Positions 6,064 through 9,000 of a stretch of 64,000 nt of DNA are shown here, in pieces. Both the position numbers and the translations under genes were made by a program. Within the stretch, counting starts at the first letter, position 1. Each line of letters opens with the position of its first letter. The notes beneath the pieces were generated by a model. That model saw nothing but the letters and a program-made list of their open reading frames with translations, ran no database searches and was not told the DNA's origin. The stretch comes from Gammaproteobacteria bacterium (lineage in GTDB: Bacteria; Pseudomonadota; Gammaproteobacteria; Steroidobacterales; GCA-2729495): the NCBI GenBank assembly GCA_013001905.1, contig JABDLC010000102.1, forward strand, positions 279 to 64,278, given 5' to 3'.

Positions 6064-9000
6064 TCAGCGGCCTGATTGCTTTTCGCTTAGTGCTTGGACC
6101 TGCTTGCCTACTACTTTAGCGATTTCACTGTGGAAGGGTTCAAGCATGAACTGCATGTGGTCGCTAACACCCGGTGTTGGGATCAGCTGCAGTCCGTGAT
6201 CAAACAGCCCGGACCAGTACTCATTAATATGGCGCAATTTTTCTTCTTCAAAGTCTGCGCAGAACAGCACGCCACTCACATCCGACGGCTGATACTGGTA
6301 CGAGGCGAAGGATTTTCGTGCCGTTCCGACATGCTGGACAGCCCGCAATTGGAACGGCACTTCCTTGCCCACTAAGCGGTAGGCATAGGTTGCGAGAATG
6401 CGGCCTACGTAGTGACTGCGTGCTGCCAGCGTCTTGAATGCACGCAAGGAAAAGAATTTGAGCGCGGCCAGCCGATTGCCTTTGATGGCCAGTTGCTGGA
6501 TGACCCACCGGGCGCGCGACAGACCGGCCCAACGTGTGTCCGTTGGGTCAATGAGCGCGAGGTAGGCAATTTCGTCACCCGCAGCGCGCAATTGGCGTGC
6601 CATTTCAAATGCGGCGAGGCCGCCGAGACAATAGCCCACGAGATGGTAGGGCCCTCTCGGCTGCACTCTTTTTAGCTCCCTGATATAGGTCGCTGCGAGT
6701 TCCTCAATCGTTTTCGGCATACGGAATTTAGGGTTGTATGAAAAATAAATCCCGTAGAGTGGTTGCTCATCGTCCATCACGCGCGCCATTTTCATGGGCT
6801 CGCCATGAATGCAGAACAGCGGCGGTCTGGAGCCGCTGGTGCGTATCGGCAGCAAGGCGCTGCCTGACGCTATTTCGGCGGCGACGCTATCGTAATCAGT
6901 TTCTGCATTAATCTTCCGTGCGAGTGCGGCAACGGTCGGATTCTCGAATACGGTAGCCACCACGATACGCACACCGGTGGCTTCTTCGATTCGCTTGATC
7001 AGTTTGAGGATCAGGAGTGAGTGCCCGCCGAGGGAGAAAAAATCATCGTGTATGCCGACTTTTTCAGCCTGCAGCGCTTCTGCCCACAGTTCGCATAAGA
7101 GGGTTTCCGTTTGGGTTGTCGGAGCCGTGTATCCTGTGCGGGCGCCCCACTCAGGCGTCGGCAGTGCCTTCCGGTCCAGTTTGCCGTTTGCCGTTTGGGG
7201 GATCGTTGCCAACTGCATGACGACGGACGGCACCATGTAGGCGGGCAGTTCATCTCCGACAAAACTCAGTAGCTCATTTTCGATCGGGCTCTCCGGGTTA
7301 TCCGTCGCCGCATAGGCCACCAGCCGACGATCTCCTTCCGCAACCTCATAGACGATCGCTGCGGCGTCATGAACGGCGGGGTGTTCTCGCAGTGCGGCTT
7401 CAATTTCGCCCAGTTCGATGCGGTGGCCGCGCAGTTTGATCTGGTCGTCGACGCGCCCCATGAACTCGATGTTGCCGTCTCGCAGATAGCGCACCCGGTC
7501 GCCGGTTCGATACAGCCGCTCACCGGACTGGGCCGCAAACGGATTCTGCACGAACTTCGCCGCTGTAAGCTCTGGACGATTCAGGTAACCGCGTGACAGA
7601 CCGTCGCCACCAATATACAGCTCGCCAATCACACCCTCAGGTACCGGGTTCATGTGTTCATCCAGTATGTACACAGTGGTGTTGGCAATGGGTTTGCCAA
7701 TTGGGACGCTGCGCCAGTCCGGCTGGTCCGCAGGAATAAGGTAGCTGGTTGTAAACGTTGTCGATTCCGTTGGTCCGTAACCGTTAATCAATTTCGTGCC
7801 CGGCAGCAGTTTTGCCGCTTTGCGAATATGGCTGATCGACAAGGCTTCACCGCCGGTCATGATGACCCCGCTGCCGCGCAGTATCTCCGGCTCGGTATCA
7901 ATGATCGAGTTGAACAGGGTGGATGTGAGCCACAACAAATCAATTTGGTTGGCAGCGAAGAAGCGCCGCAGCTCATCCAGCCCCGGCACGCGCTCGCTAA
8001 AGATCACGCACTCGCCGCCGTTCAGCAGCGCGCCCCAGATTTCAAGCGTAGAGGCATCGAAGGAAATGGGTGCGAGGACGCCGATGCGCATGCCTTCGTC
8101 GAGAGGTGTGAAATAGTTGTTGATGACCAGGCGCAGCACGCTCTTCTGCTCGATCAGCGTGCCTTTGGGTTGGCCGGTAGAACCGGATGTGTAGATCACA
8201 TAGGCAAGGCTTTCTGCGCTACTCACGGTCGGTGGGTTGCTGTCCGGCAGCGATTCCAGTTGCGCATTGATGCCGTCCAGATCGATACGTTTTGTTTCTC
8301 CGGTTGGCAATTGCGGGTTGATGTCGCTGCGTGTGAGCAACACCGGGCTGGCAGTGTCTTCCAGCATGAACTGCAACCGCGCCTCGGGATAGGCGGGATC
8401 CAGTGGCACGTAGGCAGCCCCCGCTTTAGTGATTGCGAGTATGGTTGTGATGGCGTCGATACCCCGATCGAGACTCAGTGCAACGAGGGTTTCATGACCG
8501 ATGCCCTGGTTGCGCAAATAGTGAGCCATCCGGTTTGCACGTGAATTGAGTTCGGCATAGGTCAGCGTTTCTCCATCGCAACTCAGCGCCGTGGCGGTCG
8601 GCGTAGCCGCAACCTGCTCCTCGAAACGCGCCTGGATGCCTGTGCGCGGGTAGTCCCGCTGAGTTGTATTTTTTTCTGCCAGGAGCTGCGTGCGTTCCTG
8701 GTCAGCCAGAATCGGCAACGAATACAGCGGTACGTCGGGTGTGGCAACAATGGCATTAAGCAACAGTTCAAAATGCTCGGCCAGACGACGGATCGTACTT
8801 TCATCGAACAGATCGGTGTTGTAGCTGAAGTGCGCCAGCAGGCCGTCCGGCGATTCCTGAGTTGACAGCGTGATGTCAAACTTTGTGGTGGTGATGTCGA
8901 ACGCAACATTACTGACATCGAGCCCGGCAAAGCTCATGCCGTCGCCGAGAGGCTGCTGCAACATGAACATCACCTGGAAAAATGGCGTGTAGCTCATTTC

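Follow-up and report, generated by a model that had tools for sequence, protein, structure and literature searches.

Thioesterases (TEs) of the Cys type, in which Cys takes the place of the Ser nucleophile, make up about 2% of known TEs (PMC13288461). Five of them, ObiF, SulM, the polymyxin PMB TE, MacB-TE and BulbE-TE, have reported chemistry, and all five are cyclases (PMC11792885, PMC13288461, PMC6668435, PMC11298585). Such enzymes show little hydrolysis and accept weak nucleophiles (PMC13288461, PMC11792885). Cys is needed for ring closure by ObiF and SulM (PMC11792885, PMC6668435, PMC11298585), and PMB TE, which also has a catalytic Cys, becomes 60-fold slower on replacement by Ser, as cited in PMC11792885. 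BulbE-TE makes an N-acylindole macrocycle, and its C731S variant loses the indole nitrogen and alcohol nucleophiles and retains the amine (PMC11792885). MacB-TE, with the triad Cys89/Asp116/His218, yields only the macolacin macrolactam and its C89S variant only hydrolysis; it groups with Ser-type cyclases, apart from ObiF and SulM (PMC13288461). With both MacB-TE and BulbE-TE, the exchange of Cys for Ser turns cyclisation into hydrolysis (PMC13288461, PMC11792885). The TE of AB3403 (4ZXH) has a catalytic Cys and a triad Asp at the normal position I, whereas in ObiF and SulM the Asp is at position II (PMC11298585, PMC6668435). ObiF has Gly at position I (PMC6668435), and the elbow of SulTE is a Gln-Cys-Asn motif (PMC11298585). 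The TE considered here forms the C-terminus of NRPS D, a nonribosomal peptide synthetase (NRPS) encoded in a 64,000-nucleotide stretch of gammaproteobacterial DNA (assembly GCA_013001905.1, contig JABDLC010000102.1, positions 279 to 64,278; the whole stretch is the window below). It is a further example of the known minority Cys-type release class, and its mechanism is not new. The first-pass annotation of this DNA had given ObiF and SulM as the documented Cys-TEs and had tied them to strained rings. That account was too narrow, as PMB TE, MacB-TE, BulbE-TE and AB3403 have Cys too (PMC11792885, PMC13288461, PMC11298585).

The terminal domain of NRPS D belongs to the type I NRPS/PKS thioesterases (PF00975, alpha/beta-hydrolase). 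Its last 278 residues score 68.4 bits against the Pfam Thioesterase profile PF00975, for which the cut-off is 26.4, and the domain is fused to the C-terminus of the last module immediately beyond the carrier domain, with the stop codon after residue 7124. The landmarks expected of such a TE, which the first-pass annotation had quoted, are all present in the translation of 6064-7200, namely RPPLFCIHG, PRGPYHLVGYCLGGLAAFEMA, LIDPTD and GVSDHMQFM, and the TGT codon that it had placed at 6628-6630 does read, on the minus strand, as Cys at residue 6937. Alignments to solved TEs and a structure model, checks of the kind that it had proposed, place this Cys at the nucleophile position.

Several lines of evidence agree on that placement. 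In a single-sequence phmmer search of the Protein Data Bank (PDB), the Cys falls on the catalytic Ser of Sky-TE, the TE of skyllamycin synthesis (7crn, GWSLGS), and on that of EntF (GYSLGG); a further match, 7dxo, is an S-to-A mutant of the Sky-TE elbow Ser. The family-profile alignment sets it on the Cys of AB3403 (GGWCFGG), with Asp118 of the domain (numbering as in the table) on the Asp of the AB3403 IDT motif and His248 on the His of its GDHSS. An AlphaFold2 (AF2) model of the TE, built from 56 homologues, has a mean pLDDT of 92.2 and a pTM of 0.88. In it Cys91 joins strand 85-90 to helix 92-106 at the classic nucleophile elbow; Asp118 is directly beyond strand 111-117 in the beta6 position, which is the canonical position I; His248 is in the loop beyond strand 237-242, in the beta8 position; and the lid consists of long helices within 122-200. 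Foldseek matched the model to PDB entries for Sky-TE (7crn), AB3403 (4zxh), EntF (3tej) and Pks13 TEs, each with a probability of 1.00. Among 90 full-length TE homologues, column 118 is D or E in 83 and column 248 is His in 78. In alignments and in the predicted structure alike, Cys6937, Asp6964 and His7094 are confirmed to occupy the canonical positions of a Cys-type triad, and the earlier identification of the LIDPTD Asp and the SDHMQF His as partners of the Cys is borne out by alignment and by secondary-structure position.

A TGT codon is one base change away from Ser (TCT or AGT), so an error of sequencing or assembly would suffice to create a spurious Cys. The nine nearest relatives of the TE, at 39.5-55% identity, all have Cys at the nucleophile column, and in all of them 118 is D or E and 248 is His. 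The same-column Cys is found in L001, L006, L042, L043, L044 and P0001-P0003, all independent assemblies, and among the five independent loci whose codons were read it is TGT in L001, L006 and L044 and TGC in L042 and L043. Base-calling error can be excluded because Cys is kept across nine diverged relatives and is specified by both codons; the artefact was accordingly rejected, and its probability is negligible. Codon change with retention of the residue also shows, at the level of sequence comparison, that purifying selection acts on the Cys in the nearest clade. An identical TE protein was not found in the searched collections, the nearest being P0065, the 55% identical NRPS of L001, from a gammaproteobacterial metagenome-assembled genome.

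Beyond the nearest clade the nucleophile varies. When all retrieved homologues were aligned to the query, Cys was present in 31 of the 90 full-length TEs (34%) and in 94 of 287 TE stretches, a frequency that makes it far less unusual than the first-pass annotation had implied. The nearest neighbour has the same nucleophile for 77 of the 90 and the other nucleophile for 13, and clusters built by the unweighted pair group method with arithmetic mean are mixed. Judged from the aligned sequences, the Cys/Ser switch is an event that happened repeatedly among these homologues, because the two types interleave. A scan of contigs with the pattern AAFEMARQ, in which Cys was seen at 2 of 41 loci (L001 and L006), is biased toward Ser-type TEs and was left out of the frequency estimates. 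A separate observation is that many high-scoring homologues (P0071-P0077, P0084, P0098, P0104 and others) have two TE-like stretches per protein, some far from the C-terminus, as in P0073 at 1072-1187 and 3394-3522. Cys is frequent in both stretches of a pair, and Asn replaces the triad Asp in the first copy; by sequence the stretches resemble Cys-TE-like domains placed internally or in tandem.

AB3403 ranks first among the PDB matches to the TE family profile, with an E-value of 4e-80 over the peptidyl carrier protein and the TE, as against only 1.5e-22 for ObiF1; SulM is not among the top 60 PDB matches of that profile. The AB3403 terminal TE (ABBFA_003403, Acinetobacter baumannii, 4ZXH/4ZXI) is like that of NRPS D in its Cys elbow, its position-I Asp and its His after beta8. 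The two differ in that single-sequence similarity is confined to the core, with 21% identity in Foldseek, and in that AB3403 is a single-module NRPS, its product called uncharacterised in the SulM paper (PMC11298585), whereas the NRPS D TE ends a line of at least 16 modules. With single-sequence phmmer the order is another, Sky-TE giving an E-value of 1.4e-21, EntF 7e-13 and AB3403 3.5e-11. Sky-TE (7CRN) and EntF-TE, the best matches by single sequence and by Foldseek, have the fold and the position-I Asp in common with the NRPS D TE and cyclise by forming an ester with a Ser or Thr hydroxyl, as the NRPS D TE may also do; both differ from it in using a Ser nucleophile.

The PMB (PmxB) TE and MacB-TE also have a Cys-His-Asp triad at the end of long NRPS lines. 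Compared by published residue numbers, the spacing from Cys to Asp is 27 residues both in MacB-TE (Cys89/Asp116) and in the NRPS D TE (Cys91/Asp118), and the His is at 218 in the former and 248 in the latter, which makes the lid about 30 residues longer in NRPS D. Their nucleophile is the side-chain amine of diaminobutyrate (Dab), whereas a Dab-like adenylation (A) domain code was not seen among the codes extracted from the window. BulbE-TE has the Cys nucleophile in common with NRPS D. It differs in that a second lid, unique to it, is inserted between beta7 and alphaE, where the NRPS D TE has about 3 residues between strand 210-215 and helix 219-230, and in that its product is a short ureido hexapeptide rather than a peptide of at least 16 residues. 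The aptitude of Cys for weak nucleophiles that is seen in BulbE-TE, with an indole nitrogen and a primary alcohol, is by analogy most likely exploited by the NRPS D TE. ObiF and SulM have the GxCxG elbow and a thioester acyl-enzyme in common with it, but their C-terminal residue has a beta-hydroxyl or beta-sulfamate.

What the peptide presents to the TE can be predicted in part. The extraction of A-domain codes was validated by the recovery of DAWTIAAICK from GrsA. For the last module, module 16, the code is DALWMGGTFK, which we take to be Val-like, and the claim that this module looks Val-specific, with no beta-hydroxyl or beta-amino group, stands on that reading. We likewise take the codes at positions 3, 8 and 11 to be Ser-like, those at 2, 6, 9 and 10 Pro-like, those at 4 and 13-15 Gly-like and that at 5 Cys/Ala-like. 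Together the extracted codes suggest a peptide rich in Pro, Ser and Gly. Methyltransferase inserts in two A domains predict two N-methylated residues, and there is an epimerisation domain after module 7 and another after module 11.

In the mechanism that we favour, the NRPS D TE would be a functional type I thioesterase that terminates the chain and belongs to the minority Cys-His-Asp class. The finished peptide, of at least 16 residues, would be held on the last carrier domain, T16, at Ser6807 and would pass by transthioesterification from the pantetheine thiol of T16 onto Cys6937, activated by His7094 and Asp6964, to give an S-acyl enzyme beneath the helical lid. This S-acylation chemistry is carried over by analogy from the TE family. 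The thioester would react better than the usual oxoester with weak nucleophiles, and an intramolecular nucleophile of the peptide would then most likely resolve it to give a macrocycle instead of a linear acid. Candidates for ring closure are a Ser hydroxyl (predicted Ser 3, 8 or 11), the Cys/Ala-like residue 5 and a group at the N-terminus, which is probably encoded beyond the window.

Macrocyclising release is favoured because all five Cys-type TEs with reported chemistry are cyclases, two of which lose cyclisation on Cys-to-Ser replacement, and by this analogy it is the most likely mode, at somewhat better than even chances. The suggestion of the first-pass annotation that the Cys serves a release without a strained ring, such as macrocyclisation, fits published work to this extent and otherwise stands as a probable assignment. 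Several points weigh against it. Cyclisation rests on analogy with five characterised enzymes. The interleaving of Cys and Ser means that the switch may often be near neutral and so uninformative on release mode. The triad is assigned from sequence and secondary-structure positions only, and Asp216, which follows the beta7-position strand at a column where 8 of the 9 members of the clade have an acid, might conceivably serve as a position-II acid. Finally, the start of the peptide is probably encoded beyond the window.

Among other modes, hydrolytic release, in which the Cys-His-Asp TE would free a linear peptide acid and Cys would be a near-neutral alternative to Ser, draws on that same interleaving in close homologues, where the proportion of Cys suggests frequent switching with no obvious constraint, and on a predicted last residue, Val, for which a dedicated nucleophile cannot be named from the window. 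Against it are the strict retention of Cys in the nine nearest relatives despite synonymous codon change, the fact that ObiF, SulM, PMB TE, MacB-TE and BulbE-TE are all cyclases, and the hydrolysis that follows Cys-to-Ser exchange in MacB-TE and BulbE-TE (PMC13288461, PMC11792885). Hydrolysis is rather unlikely, though it is the main rival of macrocyclisation. Transfer between molecules, in which the S-acyl enzyme would hand the peptide to an external amine, thiol or second peptide chain, is much less probable; it takes in the thioester-exchange step that the first-pass annotation had listed as an option. Thioesters favour attack by amines and thiols, a conserved amidohydrolase is encoded directly downstream of the TE, and the solved-structure matches include a TE deposited as the oocydin branching thioesterase and that of Pks13, which transfers an acyl chain to trehalose. 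However, neither a gene supplying an acceptor nor a partner carrier protein was identified beside the TE, and such action is not reported for ObiF, SulM, PMB TE, MacB-TE, BulbE-TE or AB3403.

The remaining mode would make this an ObiF- or SulM-type TE that closes a four-membered beta-lactone or beta-lactam ring on the C-terminal residue. The shared GxCxG elbow and the mostly acidic residue at Asp216 speak for it. The conserved position-I acid, where ObiF has Gly (PMC6668435), and an elbow of Tyr-Cys-Leu as against the Gln-Cys-Asn of SulTE (PMC11298585) speak against it, as do the Val-like last A domain, with neither a beta-hydroxyl nor a beta-amino group, and the profile ranking, in which AB3403 stands far above ObiF1 and SulM does not reach the top 60 matches. 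The place of the Asp, the elbow, the code of the last module and the ranking together led us to reject this type as very improbable. To return to macrocyclisation, a narrower form of it, by analogy with weak-nucleophile Cys-TEs, has the clade using a weak or unusual nucleophile (a distant Ser hydroxyl, or a backbone or N-methylated group) for ring closure in a long, N-methylated, Pro/Ser/Gly-rich peptide of at least 16 residues; this is improbable in so specific a form.

The four NRPS genes of the window (table) contribute 2, 6, 2 and 6 modules, 16 in all, before the TE. The assembly line probably starts upstream of the window, because NRPS A opens with a docking domain and the adjoining open reading frame (ORF) at the window end has an acidic tail. 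The N-terminus of NRPS A, with its TubC_N docking domain, lies at 63746-63500 on the minus strand. The ORF that continues past the end of the window (63700-64000, minus strand) stops at about 63760, about 14 nt before the likely NRPS A ATG, and its acidic tail (…GADERDEGEI) resembles the C-terminal tail of NRPS A.

Features of the NRPS locus and its terminal thioesterase, with positions in the window
Feature	Position	Strand	Description and support
NRPS A	55980..63800	minus	2 modules; TubC_N docking domain at start
Methyltransferase insert in A domain of module 1 (NRPS A)	59361-60953	minus	about 400 amino acids; SAM-methyltransferase profiles (PF08242)
NRPS B	33909..55724	minus	6 modules; TubC_N docking domain at start
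Methyltransferase insert in A domain of module 5 (NRPS B)	45075-46667	minus	about 400 amino acids; SAM-methyltransferase profiles (PF08242)
NRPS C	27435..33905	minus	2 modules
NRPS D	6064..27438	minus	ORF of 7124 amino acids; N-terminal TubC_N docking domain; six modules (C-A-T-E, then five C-A-T), then TE
Last peptidyl carrier domain, T16	6904..7116	minus	motif scan; precedes the TE, to which it donates the peptide
Ser6807 of T16	tca codon 7020..7018	minus	phosphopantetheine site in FFSLGGHSL; motif starts at residue 6800
C-terminal type I TE domain of NRPS D	6067..6900	minus	residues 6847-7124; PF00975, AF2 model, Foldseek
Cys6937 (TE residue 91)	TGT 6630..6628	minus	nucleophile-elbow residue in GYCLGG, which runs from residue 6935
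Asp6964 (TE residue 118)	GAC 6549..6547	minus	in LIDPTD; assigned position I triad acid
His7094 (TE residue 248)	CAC 6159..6157	minus	in SDHMQF; loop beyond strand 237-242
YafV-like carbon-nitrogen hydrolase (omega-amidase type)	5267..6058	minus	PF00795 1.3e-30; NF007757 282.9 (cut-off 249); starts 5 nt past NRPS D stop

Within NRPS D, modules 3-5 (about 19600-10200, minus strand) have near-identical Gly-like codes, DILALGMVWK, DILTLGM--K and DILALGMVWK. Recent duplication was considered and rejected, as their mutual identity of 54-65% makes them old paralogues, the product of internal duplications. P0065 (L001 41-10819), the terminal NRPS of the closest relative, comprises three modules and a TE only; it is 52% identical to, and collinear with, NRPS D modules 1-3 and then has the TE with 55% identity. 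The collinearity extends to modules 1-3 only, so that ahead of the TE one cluster has three whole modules that the other lacks.

Past the TE the gene order in the window is CN-hydrolase, MFS, DUF1761 (opposite strand), class I GATase, Hydrolase_4 (opposite strand) and MFS (opposite strand). An exact look-up of the window's CN-hydrolase protein retrieved no record. The hydrolase is a conserved neighbour in this Cys-TE clade: L042 (8985-9761) and L044 (3505-4297) too have a called CN_hydrolase gene downstream of the TE, and in L001 one is suggested, at about 10830-11613, by the matching layout of downstream ORFs alone. In L042, L043 and L044 an aminotransferase gene lies between the TE and the hydrolase, and the combination of aminotransferase and amidase resembles the glutamine-transaminase/omega-amidase pair. 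The genes past the amidase (416-5263 in the window) recur in the same order and orientation in L044 (4301-8337), a distant metagenome contig. The kept gene order may reflect precursor supply or just the common ancestry of the loci; either the block moves as a whole with the NRPS end or the loci occupy the same genomic position.

Cys-type TEs draw attention as clean biocatalysts for macrocyclisation. With the NRPS D TE they gain a conserved clade that comprises at least nine clusters at 50% identity, found on very long assembly lines of uncultured Gammaproteobacteria. Around this TE about one third of metagenome homologues have Cys, so that it is far commoner there than the figure of about 2% quoted for known TEs. 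The NRPS D TE is of value for enzyme mining and as a pointer to an uncharacterised cluster of at least 16 modules, and it poses no new mechanistic question. Were the clade to close its ring through a weak or uncommon nucleophile, the chemistry of ring closure or the class of product would be new to NRPS TEs.

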